Positions 5,358 through 57,597 of a stretch of DNA of 64,000 nt are shown here, in pieces. This DNA comes from a virus (Duplodnaviria > Heunggongvirae > Uroviricota > Caudoviricetes). How positions within the stretch are numbered: position 1 is the first letter of the stretch; the number at the start of each line of letters is the position of its first letter. The notes under the pieces were generated by a model. It was not told the origin of the DNA and made no database searches. It saw nothing but the letters and a program-made list of their open reading frames with translations. A program made the position numbers and the translations under genes. The stretch covers positions 1 through 64,000 of IMG/VR virus record IMGVR_UViG_3300037467_003075. The stretch is one strand, 5' to 3'.

Positions 5358-6290
5358 TTACGCTACCGCCTTCAAAAGTTGATATGTTTTGTCAAACAGT
5401 GTGTCGCCACTTACTACGCTAGCGAATCGATTTTCGGCAAATGTTGAGGTTCTACGAGCTGGCTCACCGTGACCAACAAAATCGCTTACTGCGTTGATTA
5501 CTTGCCATCCAGTGTGACGGAACTTTGTGATATCGTCAGCTCTCATCGCCCGTTGGATAGCTTCGCGCTTGCGCATAACAGTGTTAGCCGCCCGCTCATT
5601 AACACGGGAATCAATCGGCAGAAGCTCGTTGAGAATTTCAATGAACTTGTTGTCAGGAATGTAGATGTCAGCAAGCTCATTTGCTTCTTCATTAAGTTTA
5701 TCCATGTAGTTTGTGGCAAGGCCAAGTGTACGTTGTGCTTCACTGAATTTTGCTGCAATATCTCCTACGTGCGTTGCACTCCATGAGCGGCTAGCTTGAC
5801 GGATAGCCATGTTCAACGTATTCTGGCACACTACACGGACAGGAGTCATTAAGGCGCGGATAGCGCCAGTGCCATCGTGGGACATAAAGAAGCAAATATA
5901 CGGGTCAAACTTATCGCCAAGAATATCATAGTCACGGTTCATTCTGGCAAGCATCCACACTTGGCGACCGTCCTTAAGGCTACCAGCCGTTTCGTATCGC
6001 ACTTCTCCTTCGCCAATCAAGCTGTCAGTAAAGGAGAAAGCTTCGCGGTTCTGCACAATTTGATAGCGGTCTGTTACGATACCAAGCACATTTTCGTTGT
6101 CGCTACGCACGTTTGCTTTAGTATTCGCTACTTCCTTACCGTTTACGAATACAGGCACTTGATTTACTTCCCAATCAAGGCCAGCAAGTTTAATTGCCGC
6201 CACTGAGTCGGGTGCTTCCTCAACCACTACTCCAAGACCATGCCAAGGGACTTGACGAACACTGAACATTTCGGAAACATTAGCTGGCAA
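5358..6290 (-). CDS. DUF932 family phage/plasmid-like protein
   Basis: N-terminal MFSVRQVPWHGLG...AIKLAGLDWEV...RSDNENVLGIV..YQIVQNREAFSF...YETAGSL..GRQVWMLA matches the DUF932 / TIGR03299 signature. TTG start follows AGGAGG. Confidence 0.7.
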   Translation of the reverse strand: MPANVSEMFSVRQVPWHGLGVVVEEAPDSVAAIKLAGLDWEVNQVPVFVNGKEVANTKANVRSDNENVLGIVTDRYQIVQNREAFSFTDSLIGEGEVRYETAGSLKDGRQVWMLARMNRDYDILGDKFDPYICFFMSHDGTGAIRALMTPVRVVCQNTLNMAIRQASRSWSATHVGDIAAKFSEAQRTLGLATNYMDKLNEEANELADIYIPDNKFIEILNELLPIDSRVNERAANTVMRKREAIQRAMRADDITKFRHTGWQVINAVSDFVGHGEPARRTSTFAENRFASVVSGDTLFDKTYQLLKAVA

Positions 6291-6320
6291 ATTAATCGTC
6301 CTCCTAAATAAAATGTATTT

Positions 6321-6509
6321 TTAGATTCTAAAGCTTTCCGCAATAGCTTTTGCTACTTCAATTTTCTTATCATCTGGAATCAAGTGACTGATTCGATGCC
6401 AGATATCGCTTGGTACGCTTGAAACACTGTGATAGTTCGCATCTTCAAGCATATTTCCAGTCTCTTCAATGATAGTCCATGCTTCTGCGCTTGCCATTGT
6501 GTGCGCCAT
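6321..6509 (-). CDS. hypothetical protein
   Basis: 62 aa ORF. Confidence 0.3.
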   Translation of the reverse strand: MAHTMASAEAWTIIEETGNMLEDANYHSVSSVPSDIWHRISHLIPDDKKIEVAKAIAESFRI

Positions 6510-6807
6510 TTTGGTTGCCCTCCGTTTTATTTGATACTTAGATTATAAATCATTATTACCTAATTGTCAAATAATAATTCGTAAAATTTTTTATTCTTGT
6601 ATTTACAAAGTGACTTAGGCAACGTTTATTACCCCCTATTCAGTGAAAGTTCGATTACAATCATTGCACTGGTATCCAACAAGAATCTTTTCGTGGCCCA
6701 TTCCACCGCCAGTTTTAGCGTATCCTGCATGACCTAAACAAGTCACATTAGAACTACTACAGTACGGGCAGATATACTTATCTCCGATTTTCATACCTAA
6801 TCACCCC

Positions 6808-7054: not shown

Positions 7055-7291
7055 TTATTCCCCCCTTAAGAATCCATAAAGGATATTTAATACAGGCTCA
7101 TCGGTGGAATGAATTGTAATTGTGTCGCCAGTCTTAATACCAAGCGAGAAAAGTCCAAGAATACTTTTACAGTCAATTTTTTGATTCTTCTTTTCGATTT
7201 CAACAGCAAACTCTGATGCAGATGCAATATGTGTAGCTGTGGCAAGCTCTTGAATCGTTAGGTCTTTGGTCATTGTGATTTCATATTTCAT
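7055..7291 (-). CDS. HPr-like phosphocarrier-fold protein
   Basis: KSILGLFSLGIKTGDTITIHSTDEP aligns with HPr KSIMGVMSLGV..G..VTI..G.DE; a His sits in the N-terminal helix region (ATHIASASEF). A near-consensus promoter (TTGACA-N17-TATAAT) lies at 7324-7352. Confidence 0.45.
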   Translation of the reverse strand: MKYEITMTKDLTIQELATATHIASASEFAVEIEKKNQKIDCKSILGLFSLGIKTGDTITIHSTDEPVLNILYGFLRGE

Positions 7292-10771: not shown

Positions 10772-11644
10772 TTATACTACTGCTTCAATTTTTACTTCAT
10801 CAAGTTTGTTTTCCAAGTAGCGATATGCACTATTCCTGTAAGGCTCAATGTACTGCTCCATACCAAGAGCCTCAAAGAATTTATTGCAGATATTGCCAAT
10901 AGTTTCCTGAGAATAAATCTCTTTGAGGATAAACTCAAGTTGTTCTACAGTAGAATTTTTGACTAGATTGACGATAGCAAGGGACATCATTGCCTGGCCG
11001 ATAAGTTCTTCAACACCACCTACTGCGTGGAAAAGCCTGTATTCAACAGTAGAATAGTTGCTCCCAAGAACATTCATCCATTGATATTTCCCATTCCATA
11101 TTGCATGACGATAGTAACCGTGACTATCTTTACCTTTTATTGAACGGGCATAATTATTAAGATATGTCTGCAATTCGTAGCTGTCTGATGGAGCGTTGTT
11201 CCAGTCGATTCCTTTCACCTTGCTGTTTTTGCGGAAAATCGACCTCCAACCTTTTGAAATATCACAGCAATAATCATTTCCGATGCGGTAATCTTCAACG
11301 AACAGGAAGATAATTTTCTCAATTCCTTTCCCGAAACGAAGTAGCTTTACCTTATCAAGTCCCGTAAAATCGCTGATATCGACATGGATATGTGTTCCAG
11401 CTCGATCATCCGTTCCCCATCCACAGTGTTGCATGTCTTTCCATGTTTCATACAATGGAAACAAGTCAGTCATTGGCTTCGTTCGCAGTTCTACGCCGTA
11501 TGGCTCAAGATCATCTTCCCACTCGTAGTTTTCAAGGCTACCGTCTTGACCAATGCTTACACCAGCAATCTCGATTGACTTTGGATAATCATCCAAATAT
11601 CCTTCCATCTCAATCCCGATCTTGCGATTTGTTATTAATTCCAT
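10772..11644 (-). CDS. GS-like amidoligase (Amidoligase_2 family), paralog 1
   Basis: IGIEMEGY ... QDGSL ... YGVELRTKP ... GTHIHVD ... WMNVLGSNYSTVEYRLF; these motifs recur in four other ORFs. Confidence 0.6.
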   Translation of the reverse strand: MELITNRKIGIEMEGYLDDYPKSIEIAGVSIGQDGSLENYEWEDDLEPYGVELRTKPMTDLFPLYETWKDMQHCGWGTDDRAGTHIHVDISDFTGLDKVKLLRFGKGIEKIIFLFVEDYRIGNDYCCDISKGWRSIFRKNSKVKGIDWNNAPSDSYELQTYLNNYARSIKGKDSHGYYRHAIWNGKYQWMNVLGSNYSTVEYRLFHAVGGVEELIGQAMMSLAIVNLVKNSTVEQLEFILKEIYSQETIGNICNKFFEALGMEQYIEPYRNSAYRYLENKLDEVKIEAVV

Positions 11645-13454: not shown

Positions 13455-13733
13455 TTATCGTTCCTTTCCATGATTGGATACCTCATAGTACAAAATATGA
13501 TACATAAGATTTAGATACAGTCTTTTCTCCGCCTCGTTTCGTTGCGAGTACCCATTCAATAAGAATGATTCCCATTCTTTAATTATTGGATATGTTGAAG
13601 AATCTAATGTTAGACTGTATCCATGCAACAAATCACGATTGAAAGATTCCCTAAAATAAAAGCTAGTATTAATCTCGCGTAACAACCTAAGTTCTTCTGG
13701 TGTTAGACTAATTATAATTTTAGATGCTATCAT
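13455..13733 (-). CDS. hypothetical protein
   Basis: 92 aa ORF. Confidence 0.3.
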   Translation of the reverse strand: MIASKIIISLTPEELRLLREINTSFYFRESFNRDLLHGYSLTLDSSTYPIIKEWESFLLNGYSQRNEAEKRLYLNLMYHILYYEVSNHGKER

Positions 13734-14122
13734 TTGTTCTCCTCCAATATAGAACGAGCAAAAGTGCCTCCATCAACATGCATATTACTTGAGCCATCTA
13801 CCATACCAACCCAATTTACATCATCTGCATAAAATTTTAACCCATCTCGGTATCGCGCTTCTCTTTCTCGTAATGATTGAAGTTCGACTTCAAGCTGCAT
13901 ATGACTCTCGCGCCATTTCTCTCGATTCAGAAATAAGTCTTCTAGCGCGCCTTTCAGCTGTTCAATTTCCTTCGCTTGTGCTTGGTTCTCGTCTAGCAAT
14001 TGAATGGCTTTTGAAACTGCGTAATACGCTATGCCATATTGCTCATTGTCCCATTCATGAGTAGACTCAAGCTTTTCTTTTCTCTTGGTCAGTTCTTCTC
14101 TAAGTCTTTGGTAGGCATCCAT
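13730..14122 (-). CDS. hypothetical coiled-coil protein
   Basis: 130 aa, heptad-rich. Confidence 0.35.
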   Translation of the reverse strand: MDAYQRLREELTKRKEKLESTHEWDNEQYGIAYYAVSKAIQLLDENQAQAKEIEQLKGALEDLFLNREKWRESHMQLEVELQSLREREARYRDGLKFYADDVNWVGMVDGSSNMHVDGGTFARSILEENK

Positions 14123-14547
14123 TGTTTATTGGCCTCCTTATGAGTAGAAATTAAATAATGTGCAGTATCAGCAATCCATCCATGACTAGGCAAATGGAAT
14201 CCAGTGGTGCCGTCGAAATCTGTAAACTCTTTAGCAAATTCCACTTGACCAGCAATTTCAGGATATTGTTGTTGCAGTGCAACCAGCTGGTATGCCCATT
14301 CATCGAATTGTTTATCGCTTATGATTGAAGTGCCGAACCGATAGTAAATACAAGAATGAACTAGCATCTGTTTGCGGCGGCGGAGAATAAGAGAGGAGAT
14401 ATATGCATAATATTCATCAAAATCTGGTGTTCCATCACCCCACGTTCCAAATGTAAGCTTGCAATCTCTACACCACAGTTCACATCCTCCGTCATGTGCT
14501 GTCATGGGTTTATTGCACGATGGACAATTATGGGTTTGCACTAGCAA
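14089..14547 (-). CDS. hypothetical zinc-ribbon protein
   Basis: N-terminal CPSC...CRDC. Confidence 0.4.
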   Translation of the reverse strand: MLVQTHNCPSCNKPMTAHDGGCELWCRDCKLTFGTWGDGTPDFDEYYAYISSLILRRRKQMLVHSCIYYRFGTSIISDKQFDEWAYQLVALQQQYPEIAGQVEFAKEFTDFDGTTGFHLPSHGWIADTAHYLISTHKEANKQWMPTKDLEKN

Positions 14548-37678: not shown

Positions 37679-39121
37679 TCAATCACCCATGTACACCAGG
37701 CGGCCCGCCATAAACTCAAGATCGACATTTTCACGCTTGAACATTTGATACAGGCTGACCGCTTGTTTTTGCTGCACCCCAAGGAAAGCAGCGATGTTCA
37801 AATGAAAGTCGTTCAAGTTTCCAGCCATCGGCACCGCGAAACGCTTGATTGCTTCGATATAGCGGCCGCGCAGCTCATCATCGCGCACCCTGATGCGAGT
37901 CGAAAAGTGTGATTCCATTTTCGTCATGTCGTAATTTTGCTCTATTTTGTTTTCCTCCAAAAACTGAGGAATCGGGCAGTCAATCAGTTTGTCAAGCACA
38001 TCCAGCGCATCCAGCGAACCAGAAAGCTTGAAATATTTGAAAAGATAGGACTTCATTAGCGTATAATTTTCGACGATATACGTCTTATCCACTCGTTTCC
38101 AATTCACCGAATGATTCTGAGCCTGATTTTGACTGGCCTCGATTTCAGCTTTCGACGGCATGAAGTAGAAGCTATTCCGCGCCATATCGTAGGCAAACAA
38201 TGCGATTGCGCGATTCAAGGCGAACCAAGCGGACATCATGCTAGCGGAAAAATTGCAGTCCATCATGCGGTTTTCGAAGTGGAATGCATCAGTAAAGCGT
38301 GTATCCCACTCGTATTCCATGTCGCGGCCGTCATATCGATTCCAGAAGCCATTGCCACAAGGAATGCGGAAACACGATTCGCGCTGCATACTGACCATAT
38401 AGCCGTCAGTCTTTTTCGTGTGACCATTTTCTTCTGTACCGACAGCCGTTCTAATATTATACTCTACGGCATTGTACCAAGAGTAAAGCCTATCGCCATG
38501 CATCATATCATAACCATTCCCTGCTGTCCTACGTGCACCGCGAATGTTTGTCATTGACACCCATTTCAGCACTGGGAGGAAACGAACCAAGAACATGGCA
38601 ACGTTGCGGTACATTTTCATGACTGGCAGCTTGATTGCCACCACAGAACCATCCTCACCACCAAAATCCGCATAGGCGACAGCAGTGTGCACATGTGTGC
38701 TGGCACCGTAGTTATGGCGAACGCCGCCCGACGCTTCCAGGTAAATCGGCATGATACGATCAAACTCATCTTTAATGCCGTTGAAATCGTAAGCATGGAA
38801 CGGACTAGTTGAAGTTTCCGTTGAGTGCCAGTCACGATTTTCAACGTAGCAGCCGCCGCCGTCAGTATGAGAATCGTCATTCCAGCCGTTGCCGTCGTTT
38901 ATTGCTTTCGAAGAGGCGCAGCCAGCGCCGATTGTATTCAGACGACGAAGCGTTGTGCCTGGTCCATTTGCAGTAGGTGCTTCAAATTCGCACCCTTGAC
39001 GGATAAAACGATTGATTGCCGACAGCGACTGCTGCTTCCCGTTCATTTGCTCCATAAACTCTTTACTGTTCACCGTTACCACTTTCCTTCCGTTTTGGTT
39101 TGTTTTCCCTTCTGAATACAA
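37679..39121 (-). CDS. GS-like amidoligase-related protein, paralog 5 (divergent; start uncertain)
   Basis: GCEFEAP ... STHVHTA ... SWYNAVEYNIR echo the paralog motifs. A TTGACA-N17-TAATAT promoter sits at 39122-39150. Confidence 0.45.
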   Translation of the reverse strand: MYSEGKTNQNGRKVVTVNSKEFMEQMNGKQQSLSAINRFIRQGCEFEAPTANGPGTTLRRLNTIGAGCASSKAINDGNGWNDDSHTDGGGCYVENRDWHSTETSTSPFHAYDFNGIKDEFDRIMPIYLEASGGVRHNYGASTHVHTAVAYADFGGEDGSVVAIKLPVMKMYRNVAMFLVRFLPVLKWVSMTNIRGARRTAGNGYDMMHGDRLYSWYNAVEYNIRTAVGTEENGHTKKTDGYMVSMQRESCFRIPCGNGFWNRYDGRDMEYEWDTRFTDAFHFENRMMDCNFSASMMSAWFALNRAIALFAYDMARNSFYFMPSKAEIEASQNQAQNHSVNWKRVDKTYIVENYTLMKSYLFKYFKLSGSLDALDVLDKLIDCPIPQFLEENKIEQNYDMTKMESHFSTRIRVRDDELRGRYIEAIKRFAVPMAGNLNDFHLNIAAFLGVQQKQAVSLYQMFKRENVDLEFMAGRLVYMGD

Positions 39122-39650: not shown

Positions 39651-40071
39651 ATTCGTATTGCTTGTAGCCTTCCTCCTTGTCGCCATAGGAGATGAAGACC
39701 AACTTTCCGTCTACCCATTCAGCACCGTAAAGGTCTTCCATCACGCGCTGCAGCTGCGAATCGTCTTTCAATTCATCCAGCTTTTTAGCGATTTTCTCTT
39801 TCATCGCATGGGCTTTCGCTGCCGTTTCGAAGGCAAAAAAGTCGCCGATTGTAGCAACTTGGTTGCGTTTCGGATTAAACATGCGAATTGTCGATTTACG
39901 CACATCGTCTTCCTTTTCGCTGGTAACGAACATGTTATAGCGATTCGGCGCACCGAGCAGCCGCGTTCCCCAATACCGCATGGTATCTTTCGAAAACCAG
40001 TGCATACCAGCTTCCTCGTTAAGCTTCTTCATTTGAACAAAAGAAATCGGTTTAGCAGTCAGAATGTTCAT
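39634..40071 (-). CDS. hypothetical protein
   Basis: 145 aa; first gene of the minus block downstream of the control region; motif and RBS GGAGGG upstream. Confidence 0.4.
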   Translation of the reverse strand: MNILTAKPISFVQMKKLNEEAGMHWFSKDTMRYWGTRLLGAPNRYNMFVTSEKEDDVRKSTIRMFNPKRNQVATIGDFFAFETAAKAHAMKEKIAKKLDELKDDSQLQRVMEDLYGAEWVDGKLVFISYGDKEEGYKQYEFAIEI

Positions 40072-40084
40072 ATTCGTTATCCCT

Positions 40085-40112
40085 CCAAGGATATAATTTT
40101 AGATCATTCGCG
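40085..40112 (-). promoter_or_regulatory. ATCTAAAATTATAT promoter-like motif ahead of RBS GGAGGG of gene 39634-40071
   Basis: rc: gaatgATCTAAAATTATATccttGGAGGGataacgaatATG. Confidence 0.4.
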
Positions 40113-41080
40113 CATAATTCGGGAAACGGCCGCGGAAAAGGAAAGGAGAAAAGATTCGGTTTTGTTGGCCTATCATATAAGGCACAGTCCGACAGCGACA
40201 ATTAACTGTCACTGGATAGCTCTACCGAAAACGTTTTAATCCTTTTCTCGCAAACAACACCAGCTAGTGCCGTTCATGCCGTTGGTCAACTACTCACCCC
40301 GATACATTCGCACACTAGACTGGAATCATTCGCTTTCCCTATTCCGTTCGTTCCCTACTATTGATACGACAAGCACACAAGGTTAACCGAGGAGAAGTGC
40401 AGGCCAGAAGAGCAAAAAAGCTTCTAACCTGGATAAGCGCGGGCACCTACCTGCAGGAACACATTCCTGCGACCATGAAAACCGATGCGCTGGGACTTTA
40501 CGCGATGGTCAATCGCAACCTTGATCTTACCTTGCATGCTTGCCGTACTCTTGACTAGCCTGGCGGAAAAAATCCCAAAAACGTGTGAAGCCTCACCAGT
40601 ACTGCGCTAGTCTAATATTTGATTTAAATTATCGCCCTTTTTCGTGAACATCGACAGCACTACCCGCTCAACCCTTTCGGATTAATTCTCGTGCCGTGTG
40701 GATGGCCTAGTTTTAAGCAGCATCGCTTGAATCACCTTGCCTACGTCTATACTCACAACCCGCAAGCCCTGCAACCCTTTGACATTGAAAGCTTTCGCGC
40801 AATAAACCCCTTACCCTGGGCAGTGTTTCGGAAACACACCCCCTCTATTCAGCCTGGCACCTTTCGGCACCGCCTCCCTTTTCCGTTTCGTTTCCTGCAC
40901 CAGTTTCCTGCCCGCCTACTCACTTGGCGATGTGTCCAAGCTTTCGAATACCAGATATTCCGCTCATGCATTCCGTTTCCCTACTCACAAGAGGCTGACG
41001 CTACTAACCGCTGCTCCACTCTTCCCCGTTCACCCTTCACCGGAAAAAGTCGCGTTTTCAATCAAATATTAAATTGTCAA
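40110..41080 (-). ncRNA. candidate large structured ncRNA in a GC-rich, ORF-poor island (class unknown; strand tentative)
   Basis: About 50% GC against about 38% background. The only ORFs have non-protein-like composition. The minus-strand transcript would be purine-rich with many GAAA-containing hairpins (AATCC-GAAA-GGGTT, GTGCC-GAAA-GGTGC and others). A TTGACA -35 box sits at about 41075. Confidence 0.25.
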
Positions 41081-41867
41081 GGAACTTCATCGGCCCTTTA
41101 AAGCGTGGTTACGGCGACCGCTTTCCGTGTATGCTCCAAGCGTTTCGCACCCTGTGAAAGCAGTCCAGCAAGCTCGCAGCTGGTGATTCGTTGGGATAAT
41201 GAAGCTTTCAGCTTTCAGCTGGTAACTGAAAATTGTACCAGACGAAGCTGTCTTGCCGTGTTGCCTTTCTTTGATGCAAATTAACCTTACCATACCCGCC
41301 AACGTGCTGTCAACTAGAAATTTTTGCGCGGCGGAAAAGCCAGGAAAAACTGTGTCCCATTCTCTAAAAAGCTAGGAGACTGATATAGGGACTGATACCG
41401 CTGGATGGATTGTTGTGTTTCAGTGAGGATGTGACAGTACACCAGTCGCCATCTGTCAGCTACCCCCTTGCTGCCTATCCAATGCTGACGGCCCGTTTCT
41501 GTTTTCCGCTCTTCACGGTATGGCGTCCCCCATTCGCCTTGCAATGGGGATTGTTTGCCCAGGTCGGTCGTCCGTTTCGCTCTTGGATTGCCTTGCCGTC
41601 TTACAAGTCAACACTATACACTAGGGAATAAACGTTGTAAAGACTTTTTTTTGAGCAAATACAATCAAATATTGTACCGTATCCTCCTGCTGCTCTCATC
41701 TGCTCTCGTTTACTCCCTTATACTCTTATTCTTGCCGATATCGTCTAATATTATACGCTGCCCATGCAAAATATTTTTCTCTTCATTATAAGGGAAAAAA
41801 GAAAGTTGCCCGGTATCAAGTCAGTAGAGGAGAGAACACCAGGGAATGATCGATATGTTATGGAAGC

Positions 41868-41962
41868 ATAAATGTGAAGGATAAAAATGAAGGATATGAA
41901 CGATAAAAGCGAAGGATATGAAGGATAAAAAGCGAAGGATATGAAGCGAAGGATGGAAGCAT
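41868..41962. repeat. iteron-like degenerate tandem repeats (GAAGGATATGAA units with GATAAAAGC spacers)
   Basis: GAAGGATAAAAAT GAAGGATATGAACGATAAAAGC GAAGGATATGAAGGATAAAAAGC GAAGGATATGAAGC GAAGGATGGAAGC, read directly. Confidence 0.5.
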
Positions 41963-42299
41963 GTTCACCTGCGCACTGCAATTATTGTATAGATACAACA
42001 ATGAGGAGACACCTGGCAAGTGGCCCTCACTTCTGATAATAATCGTTATGAGAATTGCACCCAGGGGGCATTTCATTTGAAACGGCAGCGGCCCCGGTGA
42101 AAATCCGTGCGCACCTTCCCATATTAATTAAGGCTAAATAAGCTGTACGCACCTGTTACATAAAACAACGCACACATATCCATAGGGGGTGTAAAAGTCG
42201 AAAAAATACATTTCTCATAACGAATTGGAAACGACTTTCCAAAAAAAATCGGGGCCATTTTTGCTTACAATTTCTGAACGAAAAATATTTATAAAAAAT

Positions 42300-42345
42300 C
42301 GATTTTTCCTTGTATAAAAGGGGGTGGATCGGTTATAATATAAGT
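42300..42345 (+). promoter_or_regulatory. plus-strand promoter (TTGTAT-N17-TATAAT-ATAAGTATCAT) with upstream A-tracts, heading the plus-strand block
   Basis: TTGTATaaaagggggtggatcggTTATAATATaagtatcat; A/T-rich UP-like region at 42230-42300. Confidence 0.4.
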
Positions 42346-42736
42346 ATCATATAATTCTTTAAAACACTAAAGGAGGATGAAGGAAATGGTTGAAAAGTAC
42401 CACATGATTATGGGTAACATTGTAGAAGCGAGACGGGCAGGAGACATGAAAACAGTAAAAATGTGGCGGGGTAGATTGGAGAAATGGCAAAAAGAATATG
42501 GGGCGTGTGCACCCGTATAAGAGTATAGGAAAGTGGATATACTATAAGTATAATACAATAAGGGGAAATACAGGGACATTCCCTGCCCCGCGCCGCCGAG
42601 AGAGTGGAGGAATGAAATGACGAACACTCTCGTTAGTTTTTGTTAGAGGGTCTGGTTAGATGTAGTTAGTATAAGGATATGTACAAGTAGATAGTGTTGT
42701 ATTCATAAATAAAATGGGAGGACAAGTGTTACTAAT

Positions 42737-57546: not shown

Positions 57547-57597
57547 AAAGAGCATGGTTGAAAATTATATTCAACTACGCTCTTTATTTTTTACGTG
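57547..57597 (+). terminator. rho-independent terminator after the SGNH hydrolase gene
   Basis: Imperfect 13-bp stem (GAGCATGGTTGAA ... TTCAACTACGCTC) followed by TTTATTTTTT. Confidence 0.45.

Follow-up and report, generated by a model that had tools for sequence, protein, structure and literature searches.

The stretch of DNA analysed here (the window) comprises the first 64,000 nt of the virus record IMGVR_UViG_3300037467_003075 and belongs to a phage whose genome measures ~160 kb. A gene-free gap of 2.3 kb (40072-42376) separates its minus-strand genes on the left from plus-strand genes on the right. We conclude with high confidence that a conserved structured RNA is encoded within this gap, at 40608-41085 on the minus strand. 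Homologues of the element were found in several genomes, and compensatory changes among them exceed those in controls. The RNA appears to represent a new family of large phage RNA that belongs to a small clade of ~160-kb phages. As an overall reading, it is probable that we are dealing with a large structured non-coding RNA (ncRNA) of a new family, which would be transcribed early, trimmed and active in trans.

An earlier note on this DNA had pointed to a GC-rich island poor in open reading frames (ORFs) at 40110-41660, and had proposed that a large structured RNA, possibly of a new class, is transcribed from its minus strand. Homologues, covariation and the lack of an Rfam match support this proposal, although the RNA measures about 475 nt and not 1.55 kb. 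It covers about one third of the island.

Relatives of the window phage were recovered via the flanking gene of a 480-aa protein. All 11 distinct relatives contain a gene-free gap of 1.9-3 kb at the same divergent junction, and when the gaps were compared in pairs, short blocks emerged in conserved order. An nhmmer profile constructed from the window copy (W) and the related loci L013 and L006 detected two further loci, L008 and L005 (labels of this type denote related contigs or loci), and the resulting five-sequence profile detected L015. Profile E-values at the syntenic gap range from 1e-76 to 1e-95 for L013, L006, L008 and L005, and the more distant L015 gave 1e-42. The conserved element extends from 41085 to 40608 of the window and is by far the best-conserved portion of the gap. 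It is present in six phages including W, in a single copy per genome. The other five, some of them in Paenibacillus assemblies, carry it at the same divergent early-promoter gap. Its length varies between 380 and 520 nt (about 475 nt in W, the ends being approximate).

The profile search did not detect the RNA in L003, L007 and L014, which belong to the same clade, nor in L017 and L019 from a more distant clade. Nothing was retrieved by blastn from GenBank phages and PLSDB plasmids or by pattern scans of IMG/VR, the search patterns having been verified against known copies of the RNA. One pattern match, in L012, was discarded as due to chance, as it sits inside a 464-aa ORF and lacks synteny. 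Two groups of contigs are uninformative: L002 is an independent assembly of the window phage with identical sequence and contributes no variation, and the IMG/VR relative L001/L011/L018 stops before the gap.

No reading frame is conserved on either strand. Every homologue contains 2-13 stops per frame, and insertions and deletions (indels) among homologues are not multiples of three. The island ORFs had been described as not protein-like; indeed, searches against Pfam and PHROGs gave no match even at E<=1, and Logan gene calls on an identical contig place no gene in the island.

Known RNA families were searched using Rfam 15. At gathering thresholds, cmscan of the window yielded tRNAs only. 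When 39900-42400 was scanned at E<=10 with permissive filters, the only match was a chance one of 15.9 bits to a cyanobacterial small RNA, located in the neighbouring gene, and four homologous loci scanned at E<=1 gave no match to the RNA. It thus showed no match to OLE, raiA, HEARO/omega RNA, RNase P, tmRNA, 6S, group I and II introns, T-box and EAR. The comparison with Rfam had been suggested beforehand, together with membership in GOLLD or ROOL; neither of these covariance models matches, and the outcome argues for a new family. It is very likely that the RNA is absent from current family libraries.

Base pairing and architecture of the RNA

The limits and fold of the RNA gene (40608-41085, minus strand) are based on nhmmer, alignments, RNAalifold, pair counts with controls and a helix table. 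The structure was derived with RNAalifold from five and then six sequences, and pairs were counted on the six-sequence alignment (245 pair cells). As controls, 500 alignment shuffles were used, as well as the same structure with partners slid by 1-3 columns. The proportion of pair cells that do pair is 92.7%, in comparison with 78.2% in shuffles (none of the 500 reaches the observed value) and 37-45% after sliding. Pairs changed on both sides number 17, against 10.3 in shuffles and 0-3 in slid structures; the corresponding covariation scores are 0.53, 0.22 and 0.04-0.09. Pairing and covariation values from the five-sequence alignment are similar. L015, which was found after the structure had been derived, keeps P0, P2, P3, P4, P5 and P7 with new sequences.

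The RNA begins with the block GUUCCUUGACAAU (GUUCYUUGACAAU, 41073-41085; all coordinates in this and the following paragraph refer to the minus strand). This block is the same in all six sequences, lies directly 5' of the closing helix and is possibly a processing or protein-binding site. The closing helix P0 consists of two parts and joins the segment after the 5' block (UUAAUAUUUGAUU...CGC, 41051-41072) to the segment after the invariant ACGAAAAA (GCG...AAUCAAAUAUUAG, 40611-40636). It was found by RNAduplex in six of six homologues. Its sequences differ yet remain complementary in W, L013, L015, L006 and L008/L005, with G-U pairs in L013, and in W they form a 16-nt inverted repeat. Inside P0 stands the hairpin P2 (UUUUUCCG-(12 nt)-CGGGGAAGA, 41020-41048), in which nine pairs are formed and 92.5% of cells are paired. 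The 5' strands of P3a (UGGA), P3b (GCAGC) and P4 (GCGU) follow at 40998-41018, the latter two being separated by the invariant junction GGUUAGUA.

Inside P4, a variable peripheral domain is located (40801-40997). It comprises 197 nt in W and 118-236 nt in the others, and in W it contains several hairpins, including GAAA-capped ones; the three GAAA hairpins quoted in the earlier note are all present. The segment 40699-40800 carries the 3' strand of P4 (GCGC), the invariant GAAAGCUUU..AUG, which reads GAAAGCU(U/A)U..AUG across the phages, P5 (GUC/GAU in W) with an internal variable stem, and the 3' strands of P3b (GCUGC) and P3a (UCCA), which flank the invariant bulge UUAAAACUAGG. At 40639-40698, P7 (ACGGCAC/GUGCUGU) surrounds the terminal hairpin P8 (UUAAUCC-GAAA-GGGUUGA) and is followed by the A-rich invariant junction (CGAUGUUCACGAAAA, CGAUGUUAACGAAAAA) that leads to the 3' strand of P0. 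In this predicted fold, which is compact and multi-helical, P0 brings the ends of the RNA together and the long-range helices P3a, P3b and P4 enclose the variable domain. The predicted conserved core is the 3' domain (P5, P7 and P8) together with the invariant single-stranded junctions GGUUAGUA, GAAAGCU, UUAAAACUAGG and ACGAAAAA.

Sequence changes in the individual helices were followed in the helix table, which is anchored on invariant motifs and is thus independent of MAFFT columns. P3a is UGGA/UCCA in three phages, UGGG/CCCA in two and CGGG/CCCA in L008; its switch between A-U and G-C divides the phages three versus three and runs across sister pairs. P3b occurs in six combinations (GCAGC/GCUGC, GUCGC/GCGGC, GGCUC/GAGUC, GUUGC/GCAAC, GAUGC/GCAUC and GAUUC/GAAUC). 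P4 is GCGU/GCGC, UCGU/ACGA, CCAA/AUGG (in two phages), GAGU/ACUU or GAAU/AUUC, with double changes in three of its four pairs. P5 conforms to GYC/GRU, with U-A in two phages and C-G in four. Six different helices of 6-7 base pairs (bp) constitute P7 in the six phages, and P8 is a different hairpin in every phage and is deleted in L015. In total, at least six internal helices show compensatory changes, with partners up to ~340 nt apart. The comparative alignment that the earlier note had called for therefore did reveal such changes in long-range helices.

Two candidates were dropped. Helix "P1" (CYUUG/CGAWG) is mismatched in half of the sequences and clashes with the better-supported P0. In the case of a covariance model of the 3' domain, MAFFT fails on variable stems, with about 11 reliable local pairs.

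The alignment also distinguishes between strands. It contains 33 G-U cells, and 92.7% of cells are paired on the RNA strand as compared with 80.8% on the opposite one, so the pairing pattern is strand-specific. With correct ends, the six RNAs fold more stably than their dinucleotide shuffles (z = -1.1 to -4.7), W being the weakest.

Proposed early transcription and possible modes of action

A predicted sigma-A-type promoter is directed toward the RNA at 41284-41313 on the minus strand. It consists of TTGACA (41313-41308), an 18-nt spacer and an extended -10 element TGgTAAGGT with the -10 at 41289-41284. Transcription is predicted to start near 41277, at a distance of ~190 nt from the RNA on its upstream side, and the promoter aligns with promoters in L006 and L007. 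At the other five RNA loci, 1-3 predicted promoters of the form TTGACA-17/18-TGnTAAGAT occur 150-400 nt upstream on the same strand. Just upstream of the early promoter, at 41320-41374 on the minus strand, a nearly invariant block B is found (GGGACAC..UUCCGCCGC; GGACAC..TTCCGCCGC), a candidate operator for a conserved regulator. It is present in phages with and without the RNA: besides W, in L006 (~706-746), L007 (~6650-6700), L005 (~7205-7260) and L003 (~7195-7250). The order of the two elements is not constant: block B stands upstream of the RNA in W and L006 and downstream of it in L005.

Another TTGACA, reported earlier near 41075 on the minus strand, is indeed located at 41080-41075, but it is not the -35 element of this RNA. 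It forms part of the invariant 5' block, is not repeated in the genome and is not followed by a -10 at 16-18 nt in any homologue; a start from it would moreover remove the covarying 5' strand of P0. The 5'-block motif as such is not enriched in the window (19 sites versus 20 expected). The T8 run at 41645-41652, also reported earlier, exists as well, but it sits on the opposite strand upstream of the RNA, with no evident role.

We propose that, immediately after infection, the host sigma-A RNA polymerase would transcribe the RNA from the strong early promoters located 150-400 nt upstream. The RNA would thereby be the first element of the leftward early transcript. This transcript would be trimmed to the closing helix P0, plausibly by a double-strand-specific RNase, giving a stable stand-alone RNA. 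The idea of trimming draws on Bacillus RNase III, which is known to cut early transcripts of SPO1-type phages. Either in an assembly made of RNA only or within a ribonucleoprotein, the RNA might then act in trans in host takeover or counter-defence, and would not regulate a particular downstream gene. We lean slightly toward such a stand-alone, trans-acting, early RNA.

Alternatively, the RNA could act in cis, forming part of the leader at the 5' end of the long, leftward early operon. There it might mediate processive antitermination by modifying RNA polymerase, like HK022 put and Bacillus EAR, or serve as a stabiliser or processing platform of early mRNA. Its position would suit such a role: it lies 150-400 nt below strong early promoters and above a run of minus-strand genes of ~37 kb, no terminator stands in between, and in all six phages it is sense to that operon. 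We nevertheless consider a cis leader unlikely. Known cis antitermination RNAs are 70-130 nt long, far smaller than the 380-520 nt of this RNA, whose closed 5'-3' architecture is typical of stable RNAs. Three close relatives share the operon layout yet lack the RNA. Moreover, the first genes downstream are unrelated among the six phages and are separated from the RNA by another 300-750 nt with further promoter-like sites. Together with the shifting order of RNA and block B, these facts argue for an independent accessory RNA module and against a gene-specific cis-regulator.

A role in replication, in which the RNA would be an origin-associated R-loop or primer and the island part of the origin, had been put forward in the earlier note as an alternative. 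The cumulative GC-skew minimum and the switch of gene orientation near 41.7 kb, an iteron-like GAAGGATA array (41863-41954) and AT-rich DNA at ~42150-42450 are consistent with it. The skew switch, however, fits divergent transcription equally well and alone does not show an origin, and the iterons lie ~800 nt away and are not co-conserved with the RNA. A primer or R-loop RNA can do without a conserved multi-helix fold with invariant junctions, and the close relatives without the RNA must replicate too. Such a role is thus highly improbable, and neither an origin nor a packaging region is needed to account for the RNA segment; an origin may lie elsewhere in the 2.3-kb gap, outside this segment. 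It is harder still to believe that no RNA is involved and that the element acts as DNA (inverted repeats, protein-binding sites, an invertible or mobile segment) or is a decayed protein gene. The 16-nt inverted repeat that bounds it in W and its patchy presence in the clade would agree with a DNA element, but not the compensatory changes in widely spaced internal helices, the strand specificity given by G-U pairs and the single copy per genome. A 136-aa plus-strand ORF overlaps the element; a decayed gene is disfavoured by the absence of a conserved frame and of a Pfam or PHROG match, and the indels argue against it as well.

Several points weigh against an early, stand-alone structured RNA. 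The comparison includes six sequences only, from about three sub-clades, a number too small to give a formal covariation test (R-scape) much power. Except for L015, the structure was derived from the same alignments that were used for the counts. The W copy alone, with correct ends, folds no better than shuffles (z = -1.06); its segment 40640-41100, an arbitrary first cut, gave z = 0.18 and was unremarkable on both strands, the single-sequence minimum free energy z-score being an unreliable indicator for this RNA. No convincing intrinsic terminator follows the RNA, so it may stay in a long 5' leader. Our reading does not account for the perfect TTGACA in the invariant 5' block, nor does the RNA account for ~1 kb of the GC-rich island. 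Finally, the transcript ends, the processing step and the accumulation of the RNA are features that we infer.

Bacteria and phages have few large structured RNAs (>300 nt) whose tertiary-type architecture is conserved, and most of those known have proved to be ribozymes, ribonucleoprotein cores or, lately, RNA-only cages. A tentative and rather doubtful extension of our proposal is that this RNA founds a new class of large, "ornate" RNAs of phages and has a biochemical activity of its own, being made by the host polymerase in the first minutes of infection. It could then assemble with itself into an RNA-only complex, act as a ribozyme, or serve as a decoy that counters host defence or hijacks a host RNA-binding machine. 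For RNA structural biology, a new class offers a compact and well-delimited target of 380-520 nt, in which length variants mark dispensable domains. Phage biology gains a candidate RNA for early host takeover or counter-defence. The unusually long gene-free control regions of the clade are not empty, and the finding may help to explain abundant uncharacterised long non-coding RNAs (lncRNAs) in other large Firmicutes phages.

Other features of the gap and of related phages

The GC content of 40110-41660 is 48.9%, compared with 40.1% for the window (standard deviation 2.8% for 1551-nt windows). This is essentially the window maximum, as just 0.16% of 1551-nt windows reach that value. The island is therefore GC-rich and free of credible ORFs as had been described, but not uniformly at 50-53%: in 300-nt windows its GC content varies between 44 and 53%. 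The background had been put at 38%, lower than the value measured, and the coding region left of the island (36-40 kb) already has 45% GC, so the contrast is more modest. Pyrimidine richness of the plus strand, ascribed earlier to the whole island, is limited to 40608-41085 (61%, with a C-skew of -0.33); the remaining island contains 49-54% pyrimidines.

The 536 nt that separate the RNA from the first gene (40072-40607, minus strand) display an unusually stable fold in W (z = -3.4 and -4.0 versus shuffles), centred on a long-range helix of 20 bp. Only its hairpin 40521-40492 is common to L013, with one compensatory change. A second, unproven structured RNA element may thus be present here. The 370 nt upstream of the RNA (41660-41290) show no excess folding stability. 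A motif AATATTTGATT, often palindromic as AATCAAATATTTGATT, occurs at 28 sites in the window versus 5.6 expected. As a wider element it was rejected, since no clear extended consensus was found; in the RNA, two copies merely build the W-specific closing helix.

The GAAGGATA array (plus strand) consists of five exact copies and degenerate ones with periods of 13-22 nt, and could be an origin or a regulator-binding array. The L002 assembly breaks inside it. A Logan contig with 100% identity to the window over 8.3 kb stops within a repeat array at 41978. Farther right, block A (42240-42345, plus strand) represents the rightward early-promoter region, with TTGTAT, an 18-nt spacer and TATAAT at 42310-42339 preceded by the upstream blocks AAAAATCGGGGCCATTTTT and TTCTGAACGA. 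This region is common to six phages.

Relatives in which the RNA was not detected keep gene-free gaps of ~2 kb at the junction (L003, 5414-7338; L007, 5224-7218; L014, 2094-4253), and it is possible that these gaps hold other RNAs. L017 contains a segment at 6059-6530 (identical to L019, 2181-2652) which shares only the 5' block GAGUUCCUUGACAAG with the RNA. In L017, GAGUUCCUUGACAAG is followed by a 9-bp closing helix (AAAUAGUUC...GAACUAUUU) round ~450 purine-rich nucleotides with GNRA hairpins. The segment, represented by one sequence, could be a highly divergent analogue of this RNA. The gaps of 2-3 kb in this clade could be hotspots of interchangeable large RNAs, with others carried by the RNA-less relatives and the L017 clade.

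The window encodes an amidoligase, a glutamine amidotransferase, a clamp loader, an HNH endonuclease and many proteins with PHROG matches only, and carries a block of 19 tRNA genes at 57.6-62.6 kb. No close relative of the window phage was found by blastn against GenBank phages. A JGI protein on a contig of 162,770 nt is identical to the 480-aa protein encoded at 37679-39121. The closest relatives according to this protein (53-62% identity) are metagenomic contigs and ~160-kb contigs in Paenibacillus assemblies. In two assemblies of Paenibacillus isolates, phages of the clade are found as single contigs of ~160 kb: L003 (GCA_003833245.1, contig RPHH01000009.1, 160,979 nt) and L005 (GCA_047185845.1, 161,800 nt). 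This suggests Paenibacillus as host, with the phage in a carrier state, present as a plasmid-like prophage or co-cultured. L006 additionally contains a full-length Pistol self-cleaving ribozyme (RF02679, 58.6 bits, E = 4e-8) at 11295-11362 on the plus strand, ~10 kb downstream of its copy of the RNA; the window has no Pistol match.

Comparison with known phage RNAs

The RNA resembles ROOL (RF03087) and GOLLD (RF01998) in being a large (0.4-0.8 kb) multi-helix ncRNA borne by Firmicutes-type phages, and in combining invariant junction nucleotides with variable peripheral hairpins that have GNRA loops. In contrast to them, it matches neither covariance model even at E<=10, and with 380-520 nt it is smaller (GOLLD has ~800 nt). 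Proximity to tRNA genes, which the earlier note had mentioned for these RNAs, does not apply. The nearest tRNA gene is at 57596, ~16 kb off, no tRNA was found near the RNA in the Rfam scan of related loci, and the RNA sits in the early-promoter control region instead. ROOL and GOLLD form multimeric cages, as seen by cryo-electron microscopy (PMC12286853).

HK022 put and EAR share with our RNA the location just below early promoters, at the head of a long operon. However, they are four to six times smaller and differ in architecture. EAR is included in Rfam and gave no match, and close relatives that share the operon lack the present RNA.

Kayvirus phages (Staphylococcus phage K, vB_SauM-515A1) produce two intergenic lncRNAs, lncRNA1 and lncRNA2, of ~0.5-1.1 kb, which account for 2-9% of reads, and one of them is driven by a typical early promoter (PMC7698491, PMC9241854). 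The six-sequence profile did not match the phage K regions 13595-14229 and 37679-38832 at E<=10 (nhmmer), blastn against all GenBank phages likewise gave no homology, and the Kayvirus lncRNAs adjoin tRNA genes, unlike the present RNA. They are documented by expression data, with no conserved secondary structure reported (PMC7698491, PMC9241854), whereas for the present RNA the evidence is structural and comes from sequence. In genomic logic, the Kayvirus lncRNAs are the closest analogue of our RNA, and they provide a precedent for abundant RNAs of ~0.5 kb made from early promoters.

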